A DNA stretch of 64,000 nucleotides from an uncultured Flavobacteriaceae bacterium (GCA_947488435.1 CANKZG010000001.1:734308-798307), one strand, 5' to 3'; positions 13,460 to 32,551 are shown, numbered from the stretch's first letter. A program made the numbers and translations. The notes: a model not told the origin generated them from the sequence alone.

Positions 13460-14149
13460 ATGGAAAGCAGGTGTGAAAATTGTATCATAAGACAGTTTAA
13501 TTCGCTTAGAGCCATGAGCAAAGTGGAGTTAAAAAAGGTGTCAGATGCAAAAAGCACGCGCAGTATTAAAAAAGGAATGCCCATTTTTGAAGAAGGGGAA
13601 CGATTGGCGGGTGTTTTTTGCGTTCGCGAAGGGGTTTCAAAACTTTCCAAACTTAGCTCAAACGGCAAAGATCAAATTGTAAAACTTGCAAGTAAAGGAG
13701 AGGTAATTGGCCAACGCTCTGTTATTGCTGAGGAACCTGCAAATTTAAGTGCTATTGCAATCAACGACATGGATGTTTGTTTTATCCCGAAGGAAACAAT
13801 TATTGATAGCCTCAATAATAATCCAAATTTTGCAGTTGAGGTATTGCGTCATATGGCGCATGACTTGAAGGAAGCAGATGATGTAATTGTTAATATGTCG
13901 CAAAAAACTGTTCCTCAACGTGTTGCGGAAGCTTTGTTGTATTTGCATCAAAATTATGGAGAAGATAAAGATGGTTTTTTAGCTCTACAATTAAGTAGGG
14001 AAGACATTGGTAATGTTGTGGGCACAGCTACAGAGTCTGCGATTCGTATTCTTTCAGATTTTAAAAAGAAAGGATTAATAATTACTTCAGGCAAACGCAT
14101 TGGAATTAAAGAAGAAAAAAAACTTCAAAACCTTATTACCGGATTTTAA
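13460..14149 (+). CDS. Crp/Fnr family transcriptional regulator (candidate O2-sensing FNR-type)
   Basis: 229 aa; cNMP-binding fold plus C-terminal HTH; N-terminal Cys pair C5-x2-C8 and further Cys at about 54 and 117; divergent from the cco operon. Confidence 0.8.
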   Translation: MESRCENCIIRQFNSLRAMSKVELKKVSDAKSTRSIKKGMPIFEEGERLAGVFCVREGVSKLSKLSSNGKDQIVKLASKGEVIGQRSVIAEEPANLSAIAINDMDVCFIPKETIIDSLNNNPNFAVEVLRHMAHDLKEADDVIVNMSQKTVPQRVAEALLYLHQNYGEDKDGFLALQLSREDIGNVVGTATESAIRILSDFKKKGLIITSGKRIGIKEEKKLQNLITGF

Positions 14150-14462: not shown

Positions 14463-15254
14463 GTGAAAAAAGTATTATTGGCTACTGACTTTTCTGAAAA
14501 TTCGTGGAATTCCTGCGTTTATGCGCTCCATTTATTTAAAGACCTGAATTGTACATTTTTTCTTGTCCATACCTATACGCCACCTCTTGTTGGAGGCCGA
14601 GTAGTAGCACAAACAAATAATGGGCCATCGCATAAAAATATTGCCTATTACAGTGCGTCAAATAAGCTGGAAAACTTGATGCAAAGATTACAAAAAGAAC
14701 ATCCCAATACAAAGCATTTATTTAAAATAGTATGTTCTTTTTGTTTTCTTACTGATGAAATTCAGGATACAGTTTCTCAAAAACATATTGATTTTATTAT
14801 CGCCGGAATGAAGGGGGGTTCTCAGGCTTCCGAGATTCCTATTGGCAGCAATGCGCGACGAATAATTAATCTTCATATAAGTTGTCCAATCCTTCTGATC
14901 CCGTTAGCTTATCAGTATAAATCCATTAAAGCAATTGGTTTTTTCGTAAGTCTAAACCGAATCTATTCTACTAATGAACTGGCCGTTTTAAAAAGTTTTG
15001 CCCAAAACTTTAAAGGTAGTATTAAGATCACTTCTCTTACATTGGATTTTTCTTGTCTATCTGAAATCCAAGAATATCATCTAAGTGTACTTGAAAAGCA
15101 ATTGGGTAAAAGAACTATGGCCAAAAGTTTTAGTATACTGGCACTTCCCAAGGATCTGGATAACCTCTCAAAATTTTTATCAAAAAATTCAATGTATAAA
15201 AAAATGCCCTTTTTAATTATTCCTAAAGTGGAAAGGCATGAAGAAGTATATTAG
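14463..15254 (+). CDS. universal stress protein family (tandem Usp-like)
   Basis: 263 aa, N-terminus MKKVLLATDFSENS... resembles the Usp at 2967. Confidence 0.55.
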   Translation: MKKVLLATDFSENSWNSCVYALHLFKDLNCTFFLVHTYTPPLVGGRVVAQTNNGPSHKNIAYYSASNKLENLMQRLQKEHPNTKHLFKIVCSFCFLTDEIQDTVSQKHIDFIIAGMKGGSQASEIPIGSNARRIINLHISCPILLIPLAYQYKSIKAIGFFVSLNRIYSTNELAVLKSFAQNFKGSIKITSLTLDFSCLSEIQEYHLSVLEKQLGKRTMAKSFSILALPKDLDNLSKFLSKNSMYKKMPFLIIPKVERHEEVY

Positions 15255-19422: not shown

Positions 19423-20433
19423 TCAGAAATATAACTGTGCTGCCTTCGAAAATTTTGTTGCCATCCGTTTACGCAAACGTTCAGGCTGCAATACCTCCAT
19501 GGCCTCTCCAAAACCTAAAATCAGACGTTCCAATTCAAAATTCAATTTCACTTTTATATTAATTTCAACACTTCCATCTTCATTTTCTTTTTCAATAATC
19601 TGTGAATGATGTATAGGTTTAGTCACGACATAAGGAGCATTGTATTTGTCGATCCATAATTTAATATTGGAAGCCCGTTCCCCTTGGTTCACGGTAACAC
19701 CCACAACATCCTTGTAAAAGGTATCTGCATCAAATTCATAATTTGAATAAGAAATAGCGAAATCATAGTCAATCGAAATGATTCGGTCAAGGGCAAGATT
19801 AACTATGCCTTTGTTCTTATTTCCCATTCCTATTAGAAACCATCGGTTGTTAAACTCCTTCAATAAGCAGGGATGGAAAGTAATTACATTGGCAGTAGCA
19901 GCTTTAAAAGACTTGTACTCCACCTTTAAAACCACTTTTTTCTGAATGGCTTGATAGAGTTCGTCAAGCCAATGTAATCCTTTTAGATTCTCGTTCTTAT
20001 CTAGATGAATAATAGATGACTGATGCGTCTTCTCAGTATATACTTTATCTTCTAATCGTTGAATAATTCCACCCAATTCTGAAAACAAAGAAAAGTCTTT
20101 AAACTGCTTTAGCATTTCTACAGTTTCAGAAAGTACATTCATGTCGTTTTCAGTTATGGGGATATCCGTAATGGAATAATCCTCATCTTCGTATTTGTAA
20201 TACTTTCTATCATAAGCAACAATTGGAGCGTTGTAACCTAACTTATCACTTCGCATCAACTGAATATCGAGTTGCACCGTCCGTTTGCTCACATTCACTT
20301 CCCTACCTTCGTATTCATATAAGGCATCTGAACAGGCTTCAATTAAATCATCTAAAGTCCATTGACGGTAGTTGTTTTGAAGGCATTTGTCAATAGTTTT
20401 ATATCGGATTAGGGCGTTTTTGTTGAGGGCCAT
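19423..20433 (-). CDS. HTH + WYL-domain transcriptional regulator (recalled by resemblance)
   Basis: 336 aa; N-terminus MALNKNALIRYKTIDKCLQN...WTLDDLIEACSDAL...VSKRTVQLDIQLMRS matches my recollection of the winged-HTH N-terminus of Bacteroidetes WYL-domain proteins, followed by a ligand-binding-like middle region; co-operonic with the HD protein (1-nt overlap). Confidence 0.55.
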   Translation of the reverse strand: MALNKNALIRYKTIDKCLQNNYRQWTLDDLIEACSDALYEYEGREVNVSKRTVQLDIQLMRSDKLGYNAPIVAYDRKYYKYEDEDYSITDIPITENDMNVLSETVEMLKQFKDFSLFSELGGIIQRLEDKVYTEKTHQSSIIHLDKNENLKGLHWLDELYQAIQKKVVLKVEYKSFKAATANVITFHPCLLKEFNNRWFLIGMGNKNKGIVNLALDRIISIDYDFAISYSNYEFDADTFYKDVVGVTVNQGERASNIKLWIDKYNAPYVVTKPIHHSQIIEKENEDGSVEINIKVKLNFELERLILGFGEAMEVLQPERLRKRMATKFSKAAQLYF

Positions 20434-21047
20434 TATAATGTATTTAGTTCATTGTACAAATTTGCTCTTGCCTGTTTTTCAAAAGTGGATTGAAAACCCT
20501 TAGTTTGATAAATTGTGTTCTTGTCTAAAAAGTGATGAAGTACTTTCTTTCGTCCTTTACGATACATAATACCGGGAATTTTAGCATACTCTTTTCTAAT
20601 CTTCAGAGCATAATCTTGGTATACCTCTTCGGACTGTCCTAAAATTGCTAAATCAAAGTCTATTAACAATTTCTCATCATTCGATTTGCCATTATGGTGT
20701 TTCGTACAAAGAATAAGTGCTTCAATTCGTTGAATTCCATCTACATCAAATCCAATATCTTGTAATACCTGATTGGCTTTTATTGCACTTTTCTCCTCGT
20801 TATCCTTTTTCCAAATACTATAGACAAAATCATGATAGTAAATAGCTAAAAGCATCTCTTCAGTATTTTCGATATCATCTTTGAACTTATCGAAATAGCC
20901 ATAGAGTTCGGTAAGGTGATCTAGATTGTGGTATTTTCGAAACTTTTGTCCATAAGCGCCAGCTAGTTCATTCCATAAAGCGGCAACTTCATTTTCCGTT
21001 GGTACATATTTAGAGAAAATCTTGGCGTGTCTTTCTTTTAAGTCCAT
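20433..21047 (-). CDS. HD-domain metal-dependent phosphohydrolase (putative RNA-end-processing enzyme)
   Basis: 204 aa; H...LDH...YYHD motif pattern (YHNLDHLTELY, AIYYHDFVY) consistent with an HD fold. Confidence 0.45.
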   Translation of the reverse strand: MDLKERHAKIFSKYVPTENEVAALWNELAGAYGQKFRKYHNLDHLTELYGYFDKFKDDIENTEEMLLAIYYHDFVYSIWKKDNEEKSAIKANQVLQDIGFDVDGIQRIEALILCTKHHNGKSNDEKLLIDFDLAILGQSEEVYQDYALKIRKEYAKIPGIMYRKGRKKVLHHFLDKNTIYQTKGFQSTFEKQARANLYNELNTL

Positions 21048-21136: not shown

Positions 21137-21874
21137 ATGATGAAAAGTAAACTTAAAAATCTAGCAACCGACAAGAAAGTAGACATACTGTTTGCTTGTG
21201 AATCTGGAAGTAGGGCCTGGGACTTTGCTTCCCCAGATAGTGATTTTGATGTTAGATTCGTATATACACATCCAATAGACTGGTATTTGTCAATCTCGGA
21301 AAAACAAGATACCATCGATATAATGGATGGTGATTTTGATGCAGTCGGTTGGGAACTCAGAAAGAAGCTACGCTTACTTAAAAAGTCGAACGTACCTGCA
21401 TTGGAGCATTTATTTTCACCTATAATTTATATTGAAGAAAGTTCATCCATTAAGGAACTGCGAGCGATAGCGAAAGATTGCTTTTCTCCTGTAGCTTGTA
21501 TGTATCACTATTTAAGTATGAGCAAAAAATATGAAGAAAAACTGACTGGTGAAACTGTAAAACTAAAGAGTTTGTTTTATGCATTGCGAACAGCTTTGGC
21601 GGGCAAGTGGATACTTGAACACAATACGATGCCACCTGTTGTTTTTAGCAAGATGTTATCTCTTATAAAAAGGGATGAGGCTGACGAAATAAGACACTTG
21701 ATGACTATAAAATCGGAGAATAACGAAAGTTATTTACATTCCAGAAATGAGAAAGTCGTAAACCTTATAGCAAGTGTTTTAGTTGTTAATGAAAAGTTTG
21801 CAAAATCGCTTTCGGGTGGGAAACCTGATACTGATAGAATAGATAGTTTTTTATATAACACTTTGACCAAATGA
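21137..21874 (+). CDS. DNA-polymerase-beta-superfamily nucleotidyltransferase, most likely the RtcB-associated PF10127 (RlaP-like) family
   Basis: 245 aa; GSRAWDFASPDSDFDVRF = G[SG]-x9-13-DxD nucleotidyltransferase motif. Confidence 0.6.
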   Translation: MMKSKLKNLATDKKVDILFACESGSRAWDFASPDSDFDVRFVYTHPIDWYLSISEKQDTIDIMDGDFDAVGWELRKKLRLLKKSNVPALEHLFSPIIYIEESSSIKELRAIAKDCFSPVACMYHYLSMSKKYEEKLTGETVKLKSLFYALRTALAGKWILEHNTMPPVVFSKMLSLIKRDEADEIRHLMTIKSENNESYLHSRNEKVVNLIASVLVVNEKFAKSLSGGKPDTDRIDSFLYNTLTK

Positions 21875-22923
21875 AAACAATAGAAGAACTAAAAGCTTCA
21901 GGAAATATCATATTTGAATGTATTAGCGGTAGTAGAGCATACGGACTCGCTACCGCTTCTTCTGATACCGATATTCGTGGAGTTTTTGTACTGCCAAAAG
22001 AAAAGTATTATTCATTGGAATATGTAGGTCAAATAAATAATGTCACGAACGATATTGTTTATTATGAACTCAAAAAGTTCATAGAACTTCTTTCAAAAAA
22101 CAACCCTAACATTCTTGAATTGTTAAGTGTTCCTGAAGACTGCATACTCTCAAAGCATCCGCTATTCGATAAAGTCAAGTCTGAGTACTTTCTTTCAAGA
22201 TTGTGCAAAGACACCTTTGCGAATTACGCTTTTACCCAAATAAAAAAGGCAAGAGGATTGAAGAAAAAAATAGTTAATCCTGTTGAAAAAGAACGAAAAT
22301 ATGTTACTGACTTTTGTTTTGTTCGAAAAGAAAAGGGCGCTATGCCTTTGAATACTTTTTTAGAAAATGAAGGTTTCGAAGTGGACCATTGTGGATTGGC
22401 TAAAATAAGTCACATGAAAGATTGTTACAATCTCTTCTACAACCCTTCTATGAAGTATAGTGGCGTTGCAAGAGAAAATGCGAATGAAGTCTGCCTTAGT
22501 TCTATTCCAAAATCGGAAGTGCCAGCGGCTATTTTATATTTCAATCGAGATGGTTATTCATCCTATTGTAAAAAGTATAAAGAGTATTGGTCTTGGGTAG
22601 AAAAGAGAAATGATGAACGTTACAAGAGTAATATCTCACATAGCAAGAACTACGATGCTAAAAACATGATGCACACTTTTCGTCTTTTACATATGGCCAA
22701 AGAAATAGGGGCTGATAATAAAATTATGGTAAAAAGACCAGACCGAGATTTTCTGCTAGCTGTAAAAAATGCTGAATTCGAATATGAAGAGTTGGTAGAA
22801 AGAGCTGAAAAGTTAAAATCAGAATTGGAGGTTACATATGAAAAAGCTGATTTAATGGAACGCCCAGACTTGGATATAATAAATGAACTATTGGTTGAAA
22901 TAAGAGCTCAATTCTACGAATAA
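21871..22923 (+). CDS. second PF10127-like nucleotidyltransferase (paralog; ATGA overlap with upstream gene)
   Basis: 350 aa; ISGSRAYGLATASSDTDIRGVFVLP motif; extra C-terminal helical domain. Confidence 0.6.
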   Translation: MKTIEELKASGNIIFECISGSRAYGLATASSDTDIRGVFVLPKEKYYSLEYVGQINNVTNDIVYYELKKFIELLSKNNPNILELLSVPEDCILSKHPLFDKVKSEYFLSRLCKDTFANYAFTQIKKARGLKKKIVNPVEKERKYVTDFCFVRKEKGAMPLNTFLENEGFEVDHCGLAKISHMKDCYNLFYNPSMKYSGVARENANEVCLSSIPKSEVPAAILYFNRDGYSSYCKKYKEYWSWVEKRNDERYKSNISHSKNYDAKNMMHTFRLLHMAKEIGADNKIMVKRPDRDFLLAVKNAEFEYEELVERAEKLKSELEVTYEKADLMERPDLDIINELLVEIRAQFYE

Positions 22924-23040: not shown

Positions 23041-24908
<1,868 letters not shown>

Positions 24909-25058
24909 AATTATTCTCATATTTGCAACTGGATAAATAAATATAACAAGAGAAAATAGTAAAATATGCCAGATTATTTAAATCACATACCGGACGCTAA
25001 GAAGCTAGGATTGCATCGAATTGATGGGTAGACACTATTGAGAAAACGATACATTACT

Positions 25059-25088
25059 AGAGCGTCCAAGAAATTAGGCGCTTTTTTT
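25059..25088 (+). terminator. rho-independent terminator after the rtcB operon
   Basis: AGAGCGTCC-aagaaatta-GGCGCT followed by TTTTTTTT; homologous to the terminator at 28484. Confidence 0.5.
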
Positions 25089-25264
25089 TATATACATTTT
25101 TTAGAGAATTCTCAAAATTCTAAAAGAATGCTATTTGAAAGCTAAGCATTTGAAAAACAGCAAATTGATGAATTATGCTGCTATCTGTTAAACAACGGAC
25201 CAGGATACTTATGTTTTGATTTTATTATAACTAATTGATAATCAGTAATTTAAATTATATTTTC

Positions 25265-25295
25265 TTGTGTAATCCAAAAATCCGTTTTAGCTTTG
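25265..25295 (+). promoter_or_regulatory. Bacteroidetes sigmaA-type promoter (-33 TTG ... -7 TAgcTTTG), cassette A
   Basis: TTG at 25265-25267, 20-nt spacer, TAGCTTTG at 25288-25295; the whole block is duplicated at 28701-28731. Confidence 0.45.
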
Positions 25296-25299
25296 CATC

Positions 25300-25474
25300 G
25301 CAATACAGCAACAAAATTTATTAACTGAAGTATATATGACTTTTTCAAACACATATCAGAATACACTAAAAGCACCAGGTGCTTTATTAGTGTCGCTTCA
25401 GGACTTCTATAATACATAAAGCTACTATAGTTAATGATAGAAAGTCCGAAGCCCTAAAGTTTCGGACTTTTTTA
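25300..25474 (+). ncRNA. candidate leader / small RNA A (~170 nt) ending in a terminator-like hairpin upstream of rtcB2-prfH
   Basis: Promoter-to-hairpin unit; hairpin AGTCCGAA-gccctaaagt-TTCGGACT + TTTTT at 25443-25474; no ORF; 5' ~80 nt homologous to cassette B. Confidence 0.35.
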
Positions 25475-25576
25475 TGCTCTAATTTTTAGTGACACATCTT
25501 TCCGAAACATTTTATCAAATCAAGTATTGCTCTTCCATTTTTGGAACAGCCGTACTATTCCTTAAAATGAAATCTC

Positions 25577-26968
25577 ATGGGAAAGAAATTAAGCGGAAAG
25601 GACCTAATCAAATTGGGTTTTCCAAAGAACAATAGTATCAATATTACATTAGGTCAAATCAATAGATACCATAAGCGAAAAAATAAAGAGCAGGTATTGA
25701 TGGAAGCTAAAAAAGTATTGTTGCATCCTGAGGACTATCAAGGTGATGGGGTTTGGGGTAAGATAGCAGAAAGCTTGTTAGATCCAGTTGTGGTCAAAAA
25801 ACAAGTGCTGAATTCGGCAAGAGCACCTTTCCAAATCTATGGCGAGAACGAAATAGAGGAGCAAGCAAAATACCAATTGTATGATGCTTTAAAACTTCCG
25901 ATTTCTGTTGCTGGGGCTTTGATGCCCGATGCCCATAGTGGTTATGGCTTGCCTATCGGGGGTGTTTTGGCTACTAAGAATGCGGTGATTCCATATGGAG
26001 TTGGTGTTGATATCGGTTGTCGCATGTGTTTGACTATTTATCCGATTCCGGTTTCTTACCTCAAAGGAAAGAAACATCAATTGGCAAATATGCTCTCGGA
26101 GCATACCAAGTTCGGAATGCGGGAAACCCATAAGATAAAGCATGACCACGAAATCTTTGAGCGCGATGAATTTAAAAATATTCCGCTGATAAAAAGATTA
26201 AAGGATAAAGCGTACAAGCAATTGGGAACCTCAGGTGGTGGAAATCACTTTGTAGAATTCGGAAAGGTCACTATTACAGATGACGAGAACGAATGGGGGT
26301 TGAAATTGGGCGAATATCTAGGTGTGCTTTCCCATAGTGGTTCAAGAGGATTAGGTGCAAACATTGCAAAACATTACACCTATTTGGCAACAAAGCAATG
26401 TCCGTTACCCAAACATGTGCAGCATTTGGCATGGTTGGATTTGAATACCCATGACGGACAAGAATATTGGTTAGCTATGAATCTAGCAGGTGATTATGCA
26501 AAAGCATGTCACGATGATATTCACGCAAGACTAGCGAAACTTTTGGGTACAAAACCAGTAGTTAAAATAGATAACCATCACAATTTTGCTTGGAAACAAG
26601 AGGTAAATGGTGCCGAGTGTATTGTGCATAGAAAGGGAGCAACTCCCGCCGCTAAAGGCGAGTTGGGAATTATTCCTGGGTCAATGACAGCATCGGGTTA
26701 CATCGTAAAAGGTTTGGGCAATACAGAGAGTTTAAACTCTGCTTCCCATGGTGCTGGACGGCTTTTTTCAAGACGAAAGTGTAAAGAAACGTTTACACGA
26801 AGCGAAATTAAAAAGCAACTAGACTCAAATGAGGTAACACTAATTGGTGGAGGAATTGACGAAGCACCCATGGCCTACAAAAACATTGAAAAGGTCATGG
26901 CAAATCAACAAGAATTGGTTGAAGTACTCGGAACCTTTACACCCAAAATAGTACGAATGGATAAATAA
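25577..26968 (+). CDS. rtcB: RtcB-family RNA ligase (paralog 2, RtcB2-like, paired with prfH)
   Basis: 463 aa; DAHSGYGLPIGG, GGGNHFVEFG, SHSGSRGLG, NHHNFAW, SHGAGRLFS. Confidence 0.85.
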   Translation: MGKKLSGKDLIKLGFPKNNSINITLGQINRYHKRKNKEQVLMEAKKVLLHPEDYQGDGVWGKIAESLLDPVVVKKQVLNSARAPFQIYGENEIEEQAKYQLYDALKLPISVAGALMPDAHSGYGLPIGGVLATKNAVIPYGVGVDIGCRMCLTIYPIPVSYLKGKKHQLANMLSEHTKFGMRETHKIKHDHEIFERDEFKNIPLIKRLKDKAYKQLGTSGGGNHFVEFGKVTITDDENEWGLKLGEYLGVLSHSGSRGLGANIAKHYTYLATKQCPLPKHVQHLAWLDLNTHDGQEYWLAMNLAGDYAKACHDDIHARLAKLLGTKPVVKIDNHHNFAWKQEVNGAECIVHRKGATPAAKGELGIIPGSMTASGYIVKGLGNTESLNSASHGAGRLFSRRKCKETFTRSEIKKQLDSNEVTLIGGGIDEAPMAYKNIEKVMANQQELVEVLGTFTPKIVRMDK

Positions 26969-27060: not shown

Positions 27061-27753
27061 ATGGAAAAGATAATTCAAATAACAACAGGTAGAGGCCCAG
27101 CGGAATGTAGCTGGGTCGTTGCCAAAGTACTCAAGCGATTTTTGGAAGAGACCAAATCGAGAGGATTTAAACATAGTATCCTCCATCGAGAAACAGGAAG
27201 CCAAAACGGGACAGTACAATCGGTGACTATCCGCTTGACAGGAAAAAATATGGAAGCATTTTTAGCAACTTGGTTGGGTACTATTCAGTGGATAGGCGTT
27301 TCAACATTTCGAAAATACCATAAACGAAAGAATTGGTTTATCGGGGCTTTCGAATTGAAACAAACGCAAACTACGAAAGTGGATGAGCGAGATATTTCGT
27401 TTCAAACCATGCGGAGCACCGGTCCTGGTGGCCAGAATATCAACAAGATTAATTCTGCTGTTCGGGCAATTCATACCCCCACAGGAGTACAAGTAGTTGC
27501 GATGGATAGTCGTTCTCAACATCAAAACAAAAAACTAGCAATAGCTCGGTTAAAAGAAAAAGTAAATGAAGCTAACCTAGAGCAGTTAAAGGGAAGCATG
27601 ACAGATCAATGGGAGAACCATTTGAATCTGCAACGAGGAAATCCGGTCCGAGTTTTTAAGGGTACAGATTTCAAACATCAAAAAGTGGATAAAAGTTATA
27701 AACCAAAACGGCAAAAGCTAAAAAACGATTTCAAACATCAAAAATGGGACTGA
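27061..27753 (+). CDS. prfH: peptide chain release factor H (RF-H)
   Basis: 230 aa class-I release-factor GGQ-domain protein (STGPGGQNINK) lacking a full codon-recognition domain; immediately downstream of an RtcB paralog as in the E. coli rtcB2-prfH pair. Confidence 0.75.
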   Translation: MEKIIQITTGRGPAECSWVVAKVLKRFLEETKSRGFKHSILHRETGSQNGTVQSVTIRLTGKNMEAFLATWLGTIQWIGVSTFRKYHKRKNWFIGAFELKQTQTTKVDERDISFQTMRSTGPGGQNINKINSAVRAIHTPTGVQVVAMDSRSQHQNKKLAIARLKEKVNEANLEQLKGSMTDQWENHLNLQRGNPVRVFKGTDFKHQKVDKSYKPKRQKLKNDFKHQKWD

Positions 27754-28298
27754 CAATAGCCGATACTTATTACTTAAAGGCACGAGCAGCAATGGGAGGT
27801 TTTTGCCCTGATTGGGACGAAGTTTGTGAATCACTGAACTACGCCCTGTCTTACGATGAAAATCATTGTGCCTCCCTTTGTCTTTTAGGTAAAGTTTATG
27901 CAGGAAATTTGAATCAGTATACTGAAGCTTTCGATTGCTTTGACAAAGTAATTGCAATTGACAGTTACTATATGGATGTCTATCCTGCCTACGCAAAATA
28001 TCTTATTTGGGCCGATGAAATTGAAAGAGCAACTAAACTAATTGCTTTTGCTCTTACCATAAAAGGGATATCAAAAGGAAGTTTATTTTGGCTTTCCGCG
28101 TATGCGTCTGAAACCAAGGAAGCTTATAAAGATGCTCTGAAACATCTTAACAAAGCTAAGAAGTATTCCTATAATGACGATTACTTTTCTTTCATTGAAG
28201 ATGAAGAAAATAGAATTAAAAAGAAATTGAAATTGGATAAATCCAAAGTAAAAAAGAAGAAATCTTCATCTAAAAAAAAGAAGAAAAAGAATAAATAG
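27744..28298 (+). CDS. TPR-like protein with C-terminal poly-lysine tail
   Basis: 184 aa; helical repeats; ends KKKLKLDKSKVKKKKSSSKKKKKKNK encoded by A-rich tracts; overlaps prfH stop by 10 nt. Confidence 0.5.
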   Translation: MGLTIADTYYLKARAAMGGFCPDWDEVCESLNYALSYDENHCASLCLLGKVYAGNLNQYTEAFDCFDKVIAIDSYYMDVYPAYAKYLIWADEIERATKLIAFALTIKGISKGSLFWLSAYASETKEAYKDALKHLNKAKKYSYNDDYFSFIEDEENRIKKKLKLDKSKVKKKKSSSKKKKKKNK

Positions 28299-28483
28299 TA
28301 GTAACACAACGTTTAAAAATAACATCTTTGTAAAACAAATGACACCGAGAAAGTTACATATCATCCAACAAATAGAGCTTTGGCTCTGCGATTTTCGCTC
28401 AGAATATAGTGAGCGAAACGGGCGCTATGTGACTTTATCCAACAGTTGATTCTATGTAAATCACTTATTAAACGATAAAATGA

Positions 28484-28514
28484 AAGCGTCCAATTACAAT
28501 TGGGCGCTTTTTTT
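28484..28514 (+). terminator. rho-independent terminator after the prfH operon
   Basis: AAGCGTCCAATT-ac-AATTGGGCGCTT followed by TTTTTTT. Confidence 0.55.
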
Positions 28515-28700
28515 GTGGAATTTTTTAAAGTAAAATGCGAAAAGTAGTAAACGAATAAAATAGCGTAGTTGAAACAGAAAACAATTGGTAGACAGACAGT
28601 TGTAATAAATGTTTAAAGTCCGCAATATGACGGACAGGGATTCTATTGTTCATATTTTAATTTAACTATCTGATTATCAATAAATTAAATTAATTTTTTC

Positions 28701-28731
28701 TTGTATAATTTAAAAATCGTTTTCATCTTTG
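28701..28731 (+). promoter_or_regulatory. Bacteroidetes-type promoter, cassette B (-33 TTG ... CATCTTTG)
   Basis: Same spacing (20 nt) and flanks as cassette A; sits upstream of the tRNA array. Confidence 0.4.
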
Positions 28732-28737
28732 CACCGT

Positions 28738-28948
28738 CATAAATTATAAACCCATTACCAATGGAATCTTTAAAAAGACATATACAATTATTGGAACTAC
28801 ATCTCTGTTCGCCGAAATGGTTTGAACGGTTTTATAGTGATCAACTGTCCATTTGTAAACAAAGGAGAAATACGTGTATCATGTGTTGACGTCATAGACA
28901 CCATTCACATATGTACAGAGCATCTCCGATAAAGAGGTGCTTTTTTTA
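28738..28948 (+). ncRNA. candidate leader / small RNA B (~200 nt) ending in a hairpin + T7 tract 22 nt before the first tRNA
   Basis: Hairpin GCATCTC-cgataaa-GAGGTGC + TTTTTTT at 28920-28948; 5' part homologous to leader A. Confidence 0.35.
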
Positions 28949-28969: not shown

Positions 28970-29057
28970 GGAAGAGCAAGCCAAAGGGCGGTGGCCACAC
29001 TCTTGAAAAGTGTTCGGAGTAACCAGTCTCGTGTGGGTTCGACTCCCACCTCTTCCG
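28970..29057 (+). tRNA. tRNA-Ser(TGA), class II
   Basis: Hand-folded: acceptor GGAAGAG/CTCTTCC, anticodon arm ACACT-CTTGAAA-AGTGT, long variable arm, T-arm GTGGG-TTCGACT-CCCAC, G73; 88 nt. Confidence 0.8.
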
Positions 29058-29062
29058 CAACT

Positions 29063-29149
29063 GGAGGGTAGGCAAATACTGGTTTGTTGCGCTCGCCTGC
29101 TAAGCAAGTCTACCATAAGGTAGTGAAGGTTCAATTCCTTTGCCCTCCG
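29063..29149 (+). tRNA. tRNA-Ser(GCT), class II; the only array member with an encoded CCA
   Basis: Acceptor GGAGGGT/GCCCTCC (one G-U), loop CTGCTAA, variable-arm hairpin CTACC-ataa-GGTAG, G73 then CCA; one C-A mismatch in anticodon stem. Confidence 0.7.
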
Positions 29150-29156
29150 CCAAATT

Positions 29157-29229
29157 GACAAGGTGGCTGAATAGTTAAGGCAATGGTCTGCAAAATCATT
29201 TTTTATGAGTTCGAATCTCATCCTTGTCT
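29157..29229 (+). tRNA. tRNA-Cys(GCA)
   Basis: 73 nt; acceptor GACAAGG/CCTTGTC, loop CTGCAAA, T-arm ATGAG-TTCGAAT-CTCAT, U73 (Cys identity). Confidence 0.8.
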
Positions 29230-29240
29230 CTAAATATTAT

Positions 29241-29323
29241 GGAAGTATTGAGCAATTGGCTGGCTCGCTTGACTGTAAATCAGGTTCAGAAATGACATGT
29301 AGGTTCGAGTCCTGCTGCTTCCA
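29241..29323 (+). tRNA. tRNA-Tyr(GTA), class II
   Basis: Acceptor GGAAGTA/TGCTTCC, anticodon arm CTTGA-CTGTAAA-TCAGG, long variable arm, A73. Confidence 0.75.
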
Positions 29324-29327
29324 CAAC

Positions 29328-29398
29328 GCGTCTGTGGTGTAATGGTAGCATTTGGGTCTCCAAAACCTATGATTGAGGTTCGAATCCTTAAGGACGCG
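29328..29398 (+). tRNA. tRNA-Trp(CCA)
   Basis: Anticodon arm TGGGT-CTCCAAA-ACCTA as in E. coli tRNA-Trp, T-arm TGAGG-TTCGAAT-CCTTA, G73; one mismatch at the acceptor-stem base. Confidence 0.65.
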
Positions 29399-29401
29399 CA
29401 A

Positions 29402-29474
29402 AGTACCGTAGTTCAAAGGCTAGAGCGCCCGACTGTCTATCGGGAAGGTACGGGTTCGAGTCCCGTCGGTACTG
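29402..29474 (+). tRNA. tRNA-Asp(GTC) with unusual U37
   Basis: Acceptor AGTACCG/CGGTACT, anticodon arm CCCGA-CTGTCTA-TCGGG, T-arm ACGGG-TTCGAGT-CCCGT resembles E. coli tRNA-Asp; G73. Confidence 0.65.
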
Positions 29475-29479
29475 CGAAA

Positions 29480-29552
29480 CTGGGAAGATAACGGTGGTTA
29501 GTTTACCCGCTTTGGAAGCGGGAGGTCGCAAGTTCGAATCTTGCTTCCCAGA
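29480..29552 (+). tRNA. tRNA-Pro(TGG)
   Basis: Acceptor CTGGGAA/TTCCCAG, anticodon arm CCCGC-TTTGGAA-GCGGG, T-arm GCAAG-TTCGAAT-CTTGC, A73; only 5 nt after tRNA-Asp. Confidence 0.8.
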
Positions 29553-29614
29553 CGACTTAGTCAAATCAAGTTTACTTGAATTTGATTAGCAAGGAGTAGT
29601 TGTAAGAAAGACGA

Positions 29615-29636
29615 AGTCAATCTTGCTTCTCAGACT
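29615..29636 (+). pseudogene. 3' remnant of tRNA-Pro (T-loop 3' half + acceptor 3' strand), direct repeat of 29531-29552
   Basis: AGTCAATCTTGCTTCTCAGAC vs GTTCGAATCTTGCTTCCCAGAC (17/20). Confidence 0.5.
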
Positions 29637-29639
29637 TTT

Positions 29640-29712
29640 GCTCTGTTCGTATAATGGTTAAGTACGCCTGACTTTCTATCAGGAAATAGGGGTTCGATTC
29701 CCCTACAGAGTA
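29640..29712 (+). tRNA. tRNA-Glu(TTC) with unusual U37
   Basis: Acceptor GCTCTGT/ACAGAGT (G1-U72), D-stem CGTA/TACG, anticodon arm CCTGA-CTTTCTA-TCAGG, T-arm AGGGG-TTCGATT-CCCCT. Confidence 0.65.
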
Positions 29713-29717
29713 CAAAA

Positions 29718-29790
29718 TGAGGTATAACTCAGTTGGTAGAGTACCGTGCTTTTAACACGGGAGTCTTAGGTTCGAGTCCTAATGCCTCAA
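29718..29790 (+). tRNA. tRNA-Lys(TTT)
   Basis: U1-A72 acceptor TGAGGTA/TGCCTCA, D-arm ACTC-AGTTGGTA-GAGT, anticodon arm CCGTG-CTTTTAA-CACGG, A73. Confidence 0.75.
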
Positions 29791-29795
29791 CAATT

Positions 29796-29868
29796 GCAGG
29801 GATGGCGAAATGGCAAACGCAGCTGGTTTAGAACCAGTACTCTGAGAGTTCGAATCTCTCTCCCTGTA
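29796..29868 (+). tRNA. type-I tRNA with Leu anticodon TAG (Leu-like D-arm, variable arm only 5 nt)
   Basis: Acceptor GCAGGGA/TCCCTGT, D-arm GCG-AAATGGCAAA-CGC (Leu-like), anticodon arm GCTGG-TTTAGAA-CCAGT, variable ACTCT, T-arm GAGAG-TTCGAAT-CTCTC, A73. Confidence 0.5.
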
Positions 29869-29875
29869 CTATGAT

Positions 29876-29949
29876 GCCCCACTAGCCCAACCGGCAGAGG
29901 CAAAGGACTTAAAATCCTTAAAGTCCAAGTTCGAATCTTGGGTGGGGTA
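29876..29949 (+). tRNA. type-I tRNA with Leu anticodon TAA (variable arm 5 nt)
   Basis: Anticodon arm AAGGA-CTTAAAA-TCCTT nearly identical to E. coli tRNA-Leu(UAA) arm, but variable region only AAAGT; T-arm CCAAG-TTCGAAT-CTTGG, A73. Confidence 0.5.
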
Positions 29950-29954
29950 CAAAT

Positions 29955-30079
29955 AAGCTTATGGTGTAATGGATAGCACGCAGGATTTAACTCACGCTCT
30001 TTTTACTTGAAATAAGGAGTTCGTGAATGCAGAAAAGCATTTCTAACCCTGAGGTATGAGTTCAAATCTTGTTAGGCTT
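29955..30079 (+). ncRNA. tRNA-like element (125 nt): canonical acceptor/D-arm/T-arm with a ~60-nt insertion in the anticodon region
   Basis: 5' AAGCTTA-TG-GTG..CAC D-arm (11-mer TGGTGTAATGG shared with tRNA-Trp); 3' ATGAG-TTCAAAT-CTTGT T-arm + TAGGCTT acceptor strand pairing 7/7 (one G-U) with the 5' end; split CAGG/CCTG anticodon stem. Confidence 0.3.
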
Positions 30080-30085
30080 GCAAAT

Positions 30086-30157
30086 AGACCCGTGATGTAA
30101 CGGTTAGCATACAAGGTTTTGATCCTTGTTGTAAAGGTTCAAATCCTTTCGGGTCTT
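30086..30157 (+). tRNA. tRNA-Gln(TTG)
   Basis: Acceptor AGACCCG/CGGGTCT 7/7, D-stem ATGT/GCAT, anticodon arm CAAGG-TTTTGAT-CCTTG, T-arm AAAGG-TTCAAAT-CCTTT. Confidence 0.7.
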
Positions 30158-30162
30158 CAAAT

Positions 30163-30236
30163 GGTGTCTCTAGCTTATTTTGGTAAAGCGTCCCACTGTG
30201 AATGGGAAGAACAGGGTTCGAGTCCCCGAGTACACC
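30163..30236 (+). tRNA. tRNA-His(GTG) with encoded G-1 pairing C73
   Basis: Anticodon arm TCCCA-CTGTGAA-TGGGA, D-stem GCTT/AAGC, extra 5' G opposite C73 (His hallmark); two mismatches near the acceptor-stem base. Confidence 0.6.
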
Positions 30237-30242
30237 CAAAAG

Positions 30243-30315
30243 GGAACAGTAGCAAAGATGATCAATGCGGCGGATTGAAGATCCGACGATACAGGTTCGA
30301 GTCCTGTCTGTTCCA
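30243..30315 (+). tRNA. tRNA-Phe(GAA)
   Basis: Acceptor GGAACAG/CTGTTCC 7/7, anticodon arm GCGGA-TTGAAGA-TCCGA, T-arm ACAGG-TTCGAGT-CCTGT, A73. Confidence 0.7.
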
Positions 30316-30319
30316 CAAC

Positions 30320-30392
30320 AGGAGTATAGTTCAATTGGACAGAACGCTGGGCTACGAACCTAGAAATGCGAGTTCGAGTCTTGCTACTCCTA
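30320..30392 (+). tRNA. tRNA-Arg(ACG)
   Basis: Acceptor AGGAGTA/TACTCCT 7/7, D-stem GTTC/GAAC, anticodon arm CTGGG-CTACGAA-CCTAG, T-arm GCGAG-TTCGAGT-CTTGC, A73. Confidence 0.8.
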
Positions 30393-30413
30393 CTAAAACA
30401 AGAGAAATTTTAG

Positions 30414-30536: not shown

Positions 30537-30740
30537 ACCTCTTTAGCTCAAAGGGAAGAGCTGTGGTAAAGGATATTGATCGTAGCCACGGAGTGATTGG
30601 AAGACGTTGTTAGCGGCGTGCCTGCTAATGAATAGAATTTGCAGAAGCACCGAAATGAACAAGATTCAAAATAGGGAAGCGCATTTATAGCCAATCTGTT
30701 CGTTTCGACGAAAGTGCCAGTTCGAATCTGGCAAGAGGTA
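30537..30740 (+). ncRNA. tRNA-like element (204 nt): acceptor stem 7/7, D-arm and T-arm intact, anticodon arm replaced by ~130 nt of structured sequence
   Basis: 5' ACCTCTT-TA-GCTC-aaagggaa-GAGC; 3' GCCAG-TTCGAAT-CTGGC-AAGAGGT-A; interior has several hairpins incl. a UUCG tetraloop (TTCGT-ttcg-ACGAA) but no anticodon stem-loop. Confidence 0.3.
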
Positions 30741-30750
30741 CAAAGTTCAT

Positions 30751-30780
30751 TGAAAAAAAAATTCTGCCTAGGCAGAATTA
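30751..30780 (-). terminator. rho-independent terminator for minus-strand transcripts
   Basis: Plus strand reads AAAAAAAA-ATTCTGCC-tagg-GGCAGAAT, i.e. hairpin followed by U8 on the minus strand. Confidence 0.5.
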
Positions 30781-30920
30781 ACAATATCAAGCTGGTCTTG
30801 TTGGGTGTTTCTGTATAGCACTATTGTGTGAAGCGTTGCCATAGGGTATAATGTTTTCATGTACAACTTGACTTGATGGTTTCGATTGTTCGCCAAAAAA
30901 CGATCACCACTCTGTGAGTC

Positions 30921-31012
30921 ATGGGTTCGAATCCCATCAGTCCCAAATGGGACTGTAGTTCAGTTAGGTTAGAACAACAGACGGATGCGCAGGTTCGACT
31001 CCTGCCAGCGGC
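30921..31012 (+). pseudogene. tRNA debris: T-arm + 3' acceptor (ATGGG-TTCGAAT-CCCAT-CAGTCCC-A) immediately followed by its matching 5' acceptor + D-arm (GGGACTG-TA-GTTC...GAAC) and a second T-arm lacking an anticodon arm
   Basis: Hand-folded; looks like a permuted or tandem-decayed tRNA pair; no complete cloverleaf. Confidence 0.4.
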
Positions 31013-31023
31013 CACTTTTTTTA

Positions 31024-31067
31024 GGCCCTGTAGCTCAGTTGGCTAGAGCACTACACTCATAATGTAG
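31024..31067 (+). pseudogene. 5' two-thirds of a tRNA-Met/Ile2(CAT): acceptor 5' strand, D-arm, anticodon arm; T-arm and 3' end missing
   Basis: GGCCCTG-TA-GCTC-agttggcta-GAGC-A-CTACA-CTCATAA-TGTAG, then no TTCGA T-loop and no CAGGGCC partner. Confidence 0.45.
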
Positions 31068-31450
31068 GTTTCTAAAGCTGACCATCTTTTAAAACTGGTC
31101 TCCAAGCCCTGTTAGGCTTAAAATGACAAAAACCGTAGGTATAAGTCAGTTGGTTTTTCTTCGGATAAATCAACAGTCTTGAAACTACTTTGAAATAGTG
31201 AATTTTTGATGCGAAAGGCAATTTCTTTTTGAATATCCTTCCCTCGGAAAAACCAATAAAAAGTATTGGCAACGTCGACCGAAGCATACCAAAAAAACAA
31301 ATCGTAACGAGCTTCGAAAACCAATATTTCCGTAACGGATAGATGAGTTATAGTTGCGGTTTTTTAAAAGAGAAAAACAAATTAATACTAAATAAGAAAT
31401 CGTTTAACCCGTTCGTCCGTCACTAGACTGGCGGACACAAATTTTAAGTA

Positions 31451-32551
31451 ATGAAAAGAGTAAGAATCAATGCAGGAAGAGTAGGTTTGGTCTTCAAAAG
31501 AGGCGATTACCAAAGAGTAATTACCCAAGGTACACACTGGGTAAGCTTCAGAAATATGGTTAAGGTATATGACCTTACCAAGGCCTTTGTTGCCCCTATA
31601 GCATTAGAAATCTTGCTACAGGACCAGGGCTTGGAAGCTATGTTGCATATCATCGAAGTTAAGGATGCTGAATTGGCTCTAGTTTCTGAAAACGGAAACT
31701 TGAAACAAGTCCTTACTGCTGGTAAGTACGCTTTCTGGAAAGGTCTGATAAACTTCGAGTTCGTTATGGCGGACTTGAGTAAGATCTATATCACTGAAGC
31801 TATCAGCAAAGCAATGTTGAGCCATCCTCAGTTGCGAGCGTATGTTCGTACTTTGGAAGTTGCGGCTTACGAAAAGGCTGTCCTCTTGGTTGATGATGTT
31901 TATGTCAAAACGCTGGAAAGTGGTACCTACCATTTCTGGAAGAACGACATCTCTATCAAAATTGCCAGAGCGGACATGCGTCAATTGCAATTGGAGATTT
32001 CTGGTCAAGAATTGTTGACCAAAGACAAGGCTGCTATTCGTATCAATTTCTATACACAGTATAAAGTTATAGATATCGAGAAGGCTTTGCTAGGCAACAA
32101 AGACTATGAAAAGCAGTTGTATATCGCAATGCAATTAGTATTACGGACCTATATTGGCACCTATACCTTGGATGAGCTTCTAGAACGAAAAGAAAGCATC
32201 GCTGAAGCTGTGTTTGGGGATATCAAAACTGCCGCTACCCAATTGGGTGTTGCAATTTTGAGTTGTGGTATTCGTGATGTTATCCTGACCGGTGAAATGA
32301 AAGATATTATGAACCAGGTTTTGGTTGCTCAAAAGAGAGCTCAAGCGAATATCATTACCCGACGTGAAGAAACTGCGTCTACCAGAAGCTTGCTGAACAC
32401 CGCGAAGTTGATGGAAGACAACGAAATGCTCTACAAACTGAAGGAAATGGAATACGTTGAAAAGATCGCCGAAAAAATCGGTGAGATTACCGTCTCTGGC
32501 AATGGAGGTATGGTAAAACAATTGAAAGAGATTTTCTCAGTCAATAAGTAA
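31451..32551 (+). CDS. SPFH/band-7 (slipin-like) domain protein with extra N-terminal domain
   Basis: 366 aa; C-terminal half has SPFH-like pattern (…VLVAQKRAQANIITRREETAS…). Confidence 0.55.
   Translation: MKRVRINAGRVGLVFKRGDYQRVITQGTHWVSFRNMVKVYDLTKAFVAPIALEILLQDQGLEAMLHIIEVKDAELALVSENGNLKQVLTAGKYAFWKGLINFEFVMADLSKIYITEAISKAMLSHPQLRAYVRTLEVAAYEKAVLLVDDVYVKTLESGTYHFWKNDISIKIARADMRQLQLEISGQELLTKDKAAIRINFYTQYKVIDIEKALLGNKDYEKQLYIAMQLVLRTYIGTYTLDELLERKESIAEAVFGDIKTAATQLGVAILSCGIRDVILTGEMKDIMNQVLVAQKRAQANIITRREETASTRSLLNTAKLMEDNEMLYKLKEMEYVEKIAEKIGEITVSGNGGMVKQLKEIFSVNK

Follow-up and report, generated by a model that had tools for sequence, protein, structure and literature searches.

We analysed a compact array of transfer RNA (tRNA) genes in a 64,000-nucleotide (nt) stretch of DNA from an uncultured Flavobacteriaceae bacterium (GCA_947488435.1 CANKZG010000001.1:734308-798307). 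The whole stretch is called the window below, and positions are counted from its first base. ARAGORN found 15 intact tRNA genes on the plus strand at 28970-30393 and, outside this array, no further intact tRNA gene in the 64-kb window. The array starts 670 nt downstream of an operon encoding an RNA ligase of the RtcB family (RtcB2), peptide chain release factor H (PrfH) and a TPR-like protein. Its members are listed here; each was called by ARAGORN and matched in Rfam unless another source is given.

28970-29058, plus strand: tRNA-Ser(TGA), from ARAGORN and the Rfam tRNA-Sec model
29063-29152, plus strand: tRNA-Ser(GCT), with encoded CCA
29157-29230, plus strand: tRNA-Cys
29241-29324, plus strand: tRNA-Tyr
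29328-29399, plus strand: tRNA-Trp
29402-29475, plus strand: tRNA-Asp
29480-29553, plus strand: tRNA-Pro
29554-29639, plus strand: insertion of 86 nt after Pro, from comparison with related loci
29640-29713, plus strand: tRNA-Glu
29718-29791, plus strand: tRNA-Lys
29796-29869, plus strand: tRNA-Leu(TAG), short variable arm
29876-29950, plus strand: tRNA-Leu(TAA), short variable arm
29955-30081, plus strand: tRNA-Arg(TCT), interrupted by a 54-nt insert, from ARAGORN in intron mode
30086-30158, plus strand: tRNA-Gln
30164-30237, plus strand: tRNA-His
30243-30316, plus strand: tRNA-Phe
30320-30393, plus strand: tRNA-Arg(ACG)

The Rfam tRNA model matched 14 of the 15 intact genes at 33.5-65.6 bits (gathering score 29), and Ser(TGA) was claimed by the related tRNA-Sec model at 39 bits. 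ARAGORN drew complete cloverleaves for all 15. A preliminary description of this DNA had counted sixteen tightly packed tRNA genes. Fifteen of these stand as intact genes; the sixteenth, which it called a tRNA-like element, is indeed tRNA-related, and we identified it as a tRNA-Arg(TCT) with a 54-nt insert in its anticodon loop. The spacers, given there as mostly 4-8 nt, measured 2-10 nt past the ARAGORN gene ends, so that the tight packing held, except at the interrupted Arg gene and in the 86 nt after Pro. Within this 86-nt insertion the T arm and 3' acceptor strand of tRNA-Pro are repeated in degenerate form; among related loci (cited by our own numbers, L001 onwards) it was present in L002 and L010 and absent from L001, L003 and L004. 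Ser(GCT) alone encodes CCA, as already described, and after each gene comes a C and then an A-rich spacer. The array has no tRNAs for seven amino acids, the same as those listed earlier (Ala, Gly, Val, Ile, Thr, Asn and elongator Met). In all, 1.42 kb holds 15 intact and one interrupted tRNA gene in a single orientation, in the size range of long tRNA arrays (L-arrays, at least 10 genes).

We scanned for RtcB2 with one genome per species and obtained 80 loci at 70-97% identity. The genera were Maribacter (closest, 97%), Aggregatimonas, Zobellia, Cellulophaga, Aquimarina, Winogradskyella, Bizionia, Lacinutrix, Polaribacter, Tenacibaculum, Flavobacterium and Sphingobacterium, and Saprospiraceae were also represented. 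RtcB2 was followed by PrfH in 80/80 loci and the TPR gene was present in most. Right after the TPR gene, approximately 27 of the 80 loci carried at least five tRNA genes and about six more carried remnants. Among the array-bearing loci the position was constant and the gene order largely the same: L001 and L004, the latter on the complete chromosome OZ250162.1, had the full sixteen genes in the window's order, and arrays of other genera reached 19-21 genes, with additional Asn, Gly, Val, Met, Ile and Ala tRNAs around a largely colinear core. Many Aquimarina, Flavobacterium, Sphingobacterium and Saprospiraceae loci had no array, which is the patchy distribution known from L-arrays; in complete Aquimarina chromosomes the repair operon was present, but the 10 kb retrieved to either side of it held no array.

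The preliminary description took the array to be accessory and horizontally spread, and comparison supported both claims. Compared with the few housekeeping tRNAs that fell inside the fetched related loci, array tRNAs were 54-73% identical to flavobacterial housekeeping tRNAs of the same anticodon, and the housekeeping Leu tRNAs had a different architecture (see below). L009 contained both sets: the three anticodons of its housekeeping Ser-gct/Pro-tgg/Arg-tct cluster all recur in its array. Judging from such relatives, the array is probably redundant with housekeeping tRNAs in the window's genome as well. The absence of encoded CCA, previously noted for the array, is not peculiar to it: most housekeeping tRNAs in the related loci also had no encoded CCA, and since CCA-less genes are normal in this family the feature is uninformative. 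Horizontal spread is supported by the patchy occurrence among the 80 loci and by the phage-like character of the tRNAs. Among phage records, the closest DNA matches of the array were phage tRNAs. The Glu-Lys pair was ~78% identical to that of the T4-like Serratia phage CHI14, in the same gene order (the CHI14 cluster reads Tyr-Asp-Glu-Lys-Asn-Met ... Gln-His-Ser-Pro-Ile), and Leu(TAA) was 85% identical to a 77-nt, short-arm tRNA-Leu(TAA) of the T5-like phage Kamaji.

Ahead of both the array and rtcB2 lies the same succession of a promoter-like motif, a short open reading frame (ORF) and an intrinsic terminator.

25261-25300, plus strand: promoter-like motif upstream of rtcB2 (TTTCTTGTGTAATCCAAAAATCCGTTTTAGCTTTGCA), with a TTG box and a TAGCTTTG box, from a motif scan
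25337-25475, plus strand: rtcB2 leader, with a 27-codon ORF (25337-25420) and an intrinsic terminator (25440-25475), from conservation
28339-28518, plus strand: extra leader-like unit, a 36-codon ORF (MTPRKLHIIQQIELWLCDF...) and then a terminator hairpin, read from the sequence in a region conserved in 5 loci
28697-28735, plus strand: promoter-like motif of the array, the same as that of rtcB2, from a motif scan and conservation
28761-28889, plus strand: array leader ORF of 42 codons (MESLKRHIQLLELHLCSPKWFERFYSDQLSICKQRRNTCIMC), from ORF conservation
28917-28948, plus strand: intrinsic terminator before the array, from a terminator scan; its stem covaries

Searching the window for the 27-nt motif TTTCTTGTRTAATNNAAAAATCNNTTT gave exactly two occurrences, one ahead of rtcB2 (25261) and one ahead of the array (28697), where 0.04 would be expected by chance. 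Some 20 nt after its TTG box stands a TAnnTTTG-type box (at 25288 in the rtcB2 copy), the promoter consensus of Bacteroidota. The motif lay ~270 nt ahead of the first tRNA in at least 20 arrays, was nearly invariant across 12 diverse arrays, and lay ~310 nt ahead of RtcB2 in many loci. Of 22 arrays examined, 21 had a leader ORF of 40-43 codons at this position, with common conserved motifs and one in-frame indel; L011 had a 60-codon ORF instead. Its terminator ends 22 nt before Ser(TGA) in the window. Near the end of the leader ORF, the purine tract GGAGA (28866-28870) can pair with the 5' strand of the terminator, and when folds were predicted with the terminator 3' strand withheld, this antiterminator pairing was the minimum-free-energy fold in 11 of 12 diverse arrays, enclosing a predicted hairpin over the leader stop codon. 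The paired tracts covary between groups (GGAGA/TCTCC, GGGAG/CTCCC and GGAAGG/CCTTCC). The rtcB2 leader has a similar layout: ORF and terminator were conserved in 17 loci, and GCTTC(A/G)GGACTT in the ORF paired with the terminator 5' strand in the predicted folds of 11/11 diverse loci, again with the 3' strand withheld. We infer from these models that the leaders of the array and of rtcB2 may both be translation-sensing attenuators.

The extra unit directly 3' of the TPR gene has no promoter motif of its own. Its 36-codon ORF is paralogous to the array leader peptide, and an antiterminator-like pairing, ACGGGCGC with GCGTCC, can be read from the sequence. The amino-acid content of the leader peptides followed array content between two array clades, a trend that is only suggestive because it comes from two independent lineages. 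The interval 24967-25090, located after the ORF at 24396-24908 and before the promoter motif of rtcB2, contains a further short ORF, MPDYLNHIPDAKKLGLHRIDG, and behind it (~25060-25090) a hairpin that resembles a terminator and has a T run.

The array tRNAs carry the marks expected of their anticodons. Discriminator bases fit (U73 in Cys; G73 in Trp, Asp and Ser; A73 in Tyr, Leu, Lys and Phe), His carries G-1 and C73, Pro has C1-G72, and Ser and Tyr have long variable arms. Across genera, stems are preserved by compensatory changes, where a compensatory pair is one with at least one sequence in which both sides have changed and pairing is kept. The two Leu tRNAs are peculiar. Leu(TAG) is 74 nt and Leu(TAA) 75 nt long, each with a 5-nt variable loop, so that both lack the long variable arm of type II tRNAs, whereas the housekeeping flavobacterial Leu tRNAs in related loci are 83-85 nt (Leu(TAA) 85 nt, Leu(TAG) 83 nt) with long variable arms. 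Compensatory changes were seen in 15/19 and 14/20 predicted pairs of the two array Leu tRNAs across genera; A73 was invariant in them, and G1-U72 was found in 18/18 Leu(TAG) and 15/16 Leu(TAA).

Anticodon loops are also unusual. Across arrays, position 37 was U in 25/25 Asp and 19/20 Glu tRNAs and A in 26/27 Pro and 24/24 Leu(TAG) tRNAs, in which housekeeping copies have G37; array Phe tRNAs had G37 in 13/18. The phage relatives of the Asp and Glu tRNAs read A37-C38, where the array reads U37-A38. These features look selected, because they are conserved across arrays. Phage tRNAs have been proposed to evade anticodon nucleases through loop changes (PMC10264068), and by analogy the changes here may make array tRNAs poor substrates for such nucleases.

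The 54-nt insert in the anticodon loop of Arg(TCT) spans 29987-30040 and lies at the anticodon or immediately 5' of it. An uninterrupted 73-nt Arg(TCT) stands at the same place in L001, L003 and L004; those of L003 and L004 are almost identical to the window's exons and that of L001 is a diverged allele. The insert matched no Rfam ribozyme or intron family and is too short for a group I intron. A hammerhead ribozyme was considered for the inserts and rejected by eye, since they do not preserve the CUGAUGA and GAAA cores. The insert belongs to a family (family 1) with 23 copies in the 1.6 Mb of related loci plus the window, all within tRNA arrays. A second family of anticodon-loop inserts was found in Tyr, Ser(TGA) and Phe genes.

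Family 1 copies: window 29987-30040; L005:13749; L007:13644; L009:14420, 14708; L011:16151, 16204; four in L025; L040:6446; L043:15419; L044:17293; three in L045; L046:15801; L047:17759; L049:15743, 16131; L056:13545; L060:12707
Family 2 copies, sense: L002:13786; L003:13764; L005:13459; L027:13569; L043:15941; L044:15621; L045:18270; L046:16323; L047:17671; L049:17009; L055:12823
Family 2 copy, antisense: L025:15171

Family 1 copies are ~45-53 nt long, start with A(G)CTCAY, end with TTCGTGAATGC-N3-6-GCAT and have TT on both flanks; an internal stem covaries (ACTCACG/CGTGAAT versus ATTCATG/CATGAAT). Nine of the 23 lie in sense orientation in anticodon loops of Arg, Trp and Gln, and 14 lie antisense in T loops, whose reverse complement, ATTCGAA, resembles the anticodon-loop targets. 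A scan of IMG/VR with the family 1 core gave one convincing copy (L083:12679), and no matching viral contig held a tRNA gene. This pattern of copies suits a small mobile element that acts at the DNA level and has tRNA loops as its targets, which would account for much of the array erosion in relatives. Family 2 (11 sense copies, one antisense) is ~48-54 nt long, with the arrangement GAAATGAG..TTCAACGA..hairpin..TTGAGTTAA. In the interrupted Tyr genes of distant genera all stems are kept through compensatory changes, which hints that the family 2 insert may be tolerated or removed at the RNA level, much as an old intron would behave; cutting it out at its exact boundaries would not leave Tyr with a 7-nt loop. 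Two palindromes that look like repetitive extragenic palindromes (REP-type) were also seen in L002: the 20-nt GCCTGCCTGCCGGCAGGCAG, inserted in the Cys (13648-13743) and His (~14600-14700) genes, and TCCCGATAGCTATCGGGA, in the His T loop.

In archaea and animals, tRNA splicing uses RtcB as its ligase, and one could imagine that the anticodon-loop inserts form a new class of bacterial tRNA intron, excised by an endonuclease and with exons joined by the co-encoded RtcB ligases; interrupted tRNAs would then be functional only with the repair operon on. That sense-orientation inserts always sit in the anticodon loop speaks for this proposal, as do the preserved stems of the interrupted Tyr genes, but the 14 antisense family 1 copies in T loops are what one would expect of a DNA parasite, and we regard such an intron class as decidedly doubtful.

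Further RNA elements lie between the array and the next gene.

30537-30742, plus strand: element B, a 206-nt tRNA-like RNA, from conservation and RNAalifold covariation
30870-31110, plus strand: chained, permuted tRNA-like modules resembling YrlA, from sub-threshold matches to Rfam RF02553

Full-length copies of element B at 84-96% identity were present in 10 related loci, and about nine more had shorter, partial matches; RNAalifold gave 53 pairs, 24 of them with compensatory changes. It consists of a 7-bp acceptor stem, a D arm, a long variable-arm hairpin, a T arm and A73 followed by CA. In place of the anticodon arm stands a 117-nt structured domain, made up of a hairpin and a multi-branched part in which two single strands hardly vary. 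It had no Rfam match at gathering or permissive thresholds, and its core gave only chance matches in IMG/VR viral contigs. Two identities were rejected: a transfer-messenger RNA (tmRNA), for ARAGORN calls none, G3-U70 is absent and conservation does not extend to the candidate stop codon; and a tRNA-Ile(TAT) with a 117-nt intron, as called by ARAGORN in intron mode, for covariation backs a different fold. Because it has a type II tRNA body with A73, element B is possibly a mimic recognised by leucyl-tRNA synthetase (LeuRS).

The modules at 30870-31110 consist of a T arm, a closed acceptor hairpin and a D arm, with one CAT anticodon arm, and their acceptor-like hairpins covary across loci. RF02553 (YrlA) scored 38.4 and 28.9 bits, below its gathering score of 69, and weak tmRNA-like Rfam matches were obtained too. 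A Pfam scan of ~30 window ORFs, located before 40.7 kb, found no Rsr (Ro60, TROVE). Given the sub-threshold YrlA matches and no Rsr among the scanned ORFs, we do not class the modules as Y RNAs.

Three other non-coding features were noted in this region. Between the tRNA mimics and the SPFH gene described below, 31110-31450 is non-coding and ~90% conserved across genera, and may be a 5' untranslated region or another RNA. The palindrome AATTCTGCCTAGGCAGAATT at 30760-30779 is preceded by an A run on the plus strand; it would therefore act as an intrinsic terminator on the minus strand only, implying minus-strand transcription from the right. Three related loci have ~1 kb of G+C-richer non-coding DNA between element B and the downstream conserved region (L001:10905-11897, L004:14964-15950, L002:15138-16120), which the window does not have; it gave no Rfam match save a weak tRNA-like one at L001:11401-11452.

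The protein-coding genes around the array are largely those of RNA repair.

19423-20433, minus strand: WYL/WCX transcription regulator at the island's left edge (Pfam WYL and WCX; PADLOC WYL models, E=3e-26)
21137-21874, plus strand: RlaP nucleotidyltransferase, of the RNA-ligase-associated Pol-beta family (Pfam PF10127, 236 bits)
21871-22923, plus strand: second, longer RlaP-like nucleotidyltransferase (PF10127, 100 bits, N-terminal half; phrog_388 nucleotidyltransferase)
23053-24441, plus strand: RtcB-family RNA ligase, copy 1 (PF01139, 127 bits; phrog_1075, 320 bits)
25577-26968, plus strand: RtcB-family RNA ligase, copy 2 (RtcB2), the partner of PrfH (PF01139, 282 bits)
27061-27753, plus strand: PrfH, 230 amino acids (NCBIfam equivalog TIGR03072, 229 bits against a cut-off of 167)
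27744-28298, plus strand: TPR-like protein with a lysine-rich tail, third gene of the RtcB2-PrfH unit (weak TPR matches)
31451-32551, plus strand: SPFH/Band 7 protein, closing the module (Pfam PF01145)

RtcB2 ends 92 nt before PrfH starts, the arrangement of a PrfH-RtcB rescue/repair unit; against NCBIfam release_rtcB TIGR03073 it scored 155 bits, under the cut-off of 272. WYL homologs were found upstream in ~35 of the 80 related loci. SPFH/Band 7 homologs occurred, among the 80 loci, only downstream of arrays or remnants (L001-L011, L017, L018, L030, L031, L041, L044, L046, L049, L055-L058, L064, L065 and L068), and this co-occurrence suggests that the gene belongs to the same transferable module. 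The ORFs at 20433-21047 and 24396-24908 had no match in Pfam, NCBIfam, PADLOC or PDB sequences. Beyond the island, genes are ordinary chromosomal ones (cbb3 oxidase, P-type ATPase, Crp-family regulator, hybrid histidine kinase, LytTR regulator). We rejected a phage or prophage origin of the region, because PHROGs and Pfam revealed ordinary chromosomal neighbours and neither structural nor integrase genes of phages. A single ORF of 3490 codons with a TTG start spans 42662-53134 of the window.

Passages of Burroughs and Aravind (2019, PMC6514570) describe the unit of RFH, RtcB and TPR, which a Pol-beta nucleotidyltransferase often accompanies, as one that rescues and repairs ribosomes under RNase-toxin attack. 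RlaP extends damaged 3' ends of RNA by one or two nucleotides; over-trimmed tRNA ends are restored in this way, and the repaired tRNAs work again (PMC12776372). The RNA-repair genes flanking the array fit a response to RNA-cleaving toxins.

On balance, we think it probable, with considerable room for doubt, that the array is an accessory, horizontally spread L-array that serves as an emergency supply of tRNAs within an island for translation damage. The array would be the RNA half of this ~12-kb island (19.4-32.6 kb) in a Maribacter-like flavobacterial chromosome. The protein half would comprise the WYL regulator, two RlaP-type 3'-end nucleotidyltransferases, RtcB, and an RtcB2-PrfH-TPR unit that would release and re-ligate toxin-cut ribosomes. 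The array would have its own promoter. During normal translation, ribosomes would cover the purine tract in the leader, the terminator would form and the array would be silent. Under tRNA depletion or ribosome damage, ribosomes would stall or fail to load, the antiterminator would form and a polycistronic tRNA precursor would be made, from which RNase P, 3' trimming and CCA addition would release tRNAs for 13 amino acids. These would replace tRNAs destroyed by anticodon nucleases, so that ribosome repair and tRNA supply would be switched on together when translation fails. The proposal builds on what the analysis showed: the genes, their conservation and covariation, the linkage to the repair operon, the common motif, the leader ORFs and the terminator and antiterminator pairings. 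That the array is expressed and attenuated, that its tRNAs are charged and that they resist nucleases at all is inferred. The proposed attenuation agrees with the physiology of the L-array of Anabaena, whose mechanism differs (PMC8421152).

Several observations count against an emergency supply. The antiterminator helix is short (5-7 bp) and missing in L004, the attenuator consists of predicted folds, and attenuation presupposes a close coupling of transcription and translation, which may be too loose in Bacteroidota. Scans with Pfam, NCBIfam, PADLOC and PDB identified no nuclease or toxin gene in the island. U37 and A37 could hinder decoding instead of protecting the tRNA. The window's His, Trp, Phe and Ser-gct genes have stem mismatches (the C-A mismatch in the Ser-gct anticodon stem is found in none of five aligned relatives), the interrupted Arg(TCT) and the pseudo-fragment after Pro are signs of wear, and insertions heavily erode the array in many related loci.

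Such wear would be natural if the array were a decaying relic of a phage-derived tRNA cluster, functionless and hitch-hiking beside the repair operon while its members become pseudogenes. The phage-like tRNAs, with a gene order common with phage, agree with this, as do the interrupted Arg(TCT), the Pro pseudo-fragment and the stem mismatches in the window, the related loci with only 1-9 recognisable tRNAs and many small insertions, and the many relatives that have the same repair operon but no array. However, the cloverleaf is complete in fifteen genes, many compensatory changes have preserved the stems from genus to genus, and the unusual loops hardly vary between arrays. Diverged genera have also conserved the promoter motif, leader ORF and terminator together with the array. 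We therefore consider a relic unlikely.

The array RNAs might alternatively be decoys, sensors or substrates, which would absorb anticodon nucleases or whose fragments would signal damage to the WYL regulator and the repair enzymes; the tRNA mimics next to the array would act likewise. tRNA fragments reportedly activate the rtcBA operon in enterobacteria. The non-decoding tRNA mimics in the same module (element B and the Y-RNA-like modules) and the U37 and A37 where a modified purine is normal would suit such a role. Yet the discriminator bases match the expected identities, and the anticodons are conserved in a near one-per-amino-acid design, as in phage tRNA sets. Identity marks and conserved anticodons together indicate real decoding tRNAs, and a decoy or sensor role seems to us quite unlikely.

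Codon compensation is the classical explanation of phage tRNA sets, and the array could supplement codon usage for highly expressed or acquired genes under stress, unrelated to RNA damage. Codon compensation for phage tRNAs has been noted (PMC10264068), and L-arrays mostly duplicate existing anticodons (PMC8421152), which is in keeping with this explanation. The tight, repeated linkage to RtcB2-PrfH and the promoter motif and leader design held in common are against it, and the set is generic, with one tRNA per amino acid and no skew to rare codons. We judge it very unlikely that the array is such a codon supplement. Hardly credible at all is a housekeeping tRNA operon, or an ordinary part of the housekeeping set: the chromosomal context with ordinary metabolic and regulatory genes and the lineage's own CCA-less genes would allow it, but more than half of the related genomes with the flanking genes have no array (including complete Aquimarina chromosomes), seven amino acids are without tRNAs, L009 holds housekeeping copies alongside, and neither the identity to the family's housekeeping tRNAs (54-73%) nor the Leu architecture fits.

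If the array is an emergency supply, the island would be a self-contained translation emergency kit, which senses failure, repairs ribosomes and tRNA ends, and supplies tRNAs with altered loops. Long tRNA arrays are widespread in bacteria; here the link between array and repair is physical and repeated across genera, and the combination makes the purpose of tRNA arrays directly testable and bears on RNA repair and toxin-immunity conflicts. The attenuator reading proposes a control mechanism for PrfH-RtcB, for which our literature search found none described. Two groups of array members, the tRNAs with conserved U37 and the Leu tRNAs with short arms, also put current rules for tRNA identity and decoding to the test.

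Known systems resemble parts of this island. Like the clusters of the virulent phages CHI14 and Kamaji, the array is a near one-per-amino-acid set with short spacers and has the orders Tyr-Asp-Glu-Lys and Gln-His in common with them; unlike them, it is chromosomal and has no phage genes nearby. The rsr-yrlBA-rtcBA locus of Salmonella carries Y-RNA-like tRNA mimics beside RtcB. The window's locus likewise has tRNA-mimicking RNAs beside RtcB, with the same layout of permuted T arm, closed acceptor stem and D arm, but a WYL regulator takes the place of RtcR and the YrlA scores are far under the gathering score. As in the PrfH (RFH)-RtcB operons covered by the passages of Burroughs and Aravind (2019, PMC6514570), PrfH stands beside an RtcB paralog and a TPR gene with Pol-beta nucleotidyltransferases nearby; those passages make no mention of tRNA genes, and the window adds the array, the tRNA mimics, the SPFH gene and the predicted leader-ORF attenuator. 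Our literature search found no paper that links PrfH-RtcB to tRNA arrays or describes flavobacterial arrays.

To our knowledge, the work on Anabaena is the only functional study of long tRNA arrays. The L-array of Anabaena PCC 7120 is horizontally spread, silent until translation is impaired, and co-regulated with rtcB (Santamaria-Gomez et al. 2021, PMC8421152), and L-arrays mostly add copies of existing anticodons and not new ones (PMC8421152). Like the Anabaena array, the flavobacterial one has packed tRNA genes in the same orientation, a patchy distribution that suggests horizontal transfer, supernumerary tRNAs (here supernumerary in the relative L009) with some pseudogenes, and a neighbourhood of RNA-processing and translation genes that includes rtcB, with a promoter element common to array and rtcB. 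Unlike it, the array belongs to a Bacteroidota host and is physically fused to the RtcB2-PrfH-TPR operon, has no linked HNH homing endonuclease gene, is accompanied by non-decoding tRNA mimics and an SPFH gene, and is apparently controlled by a leader ORF, a terminator and an antiterminator. Its conserved U37 and A37 tRNAs and its short-arm Leu tRNAs set it apart from the described cyanobacterial arrays.

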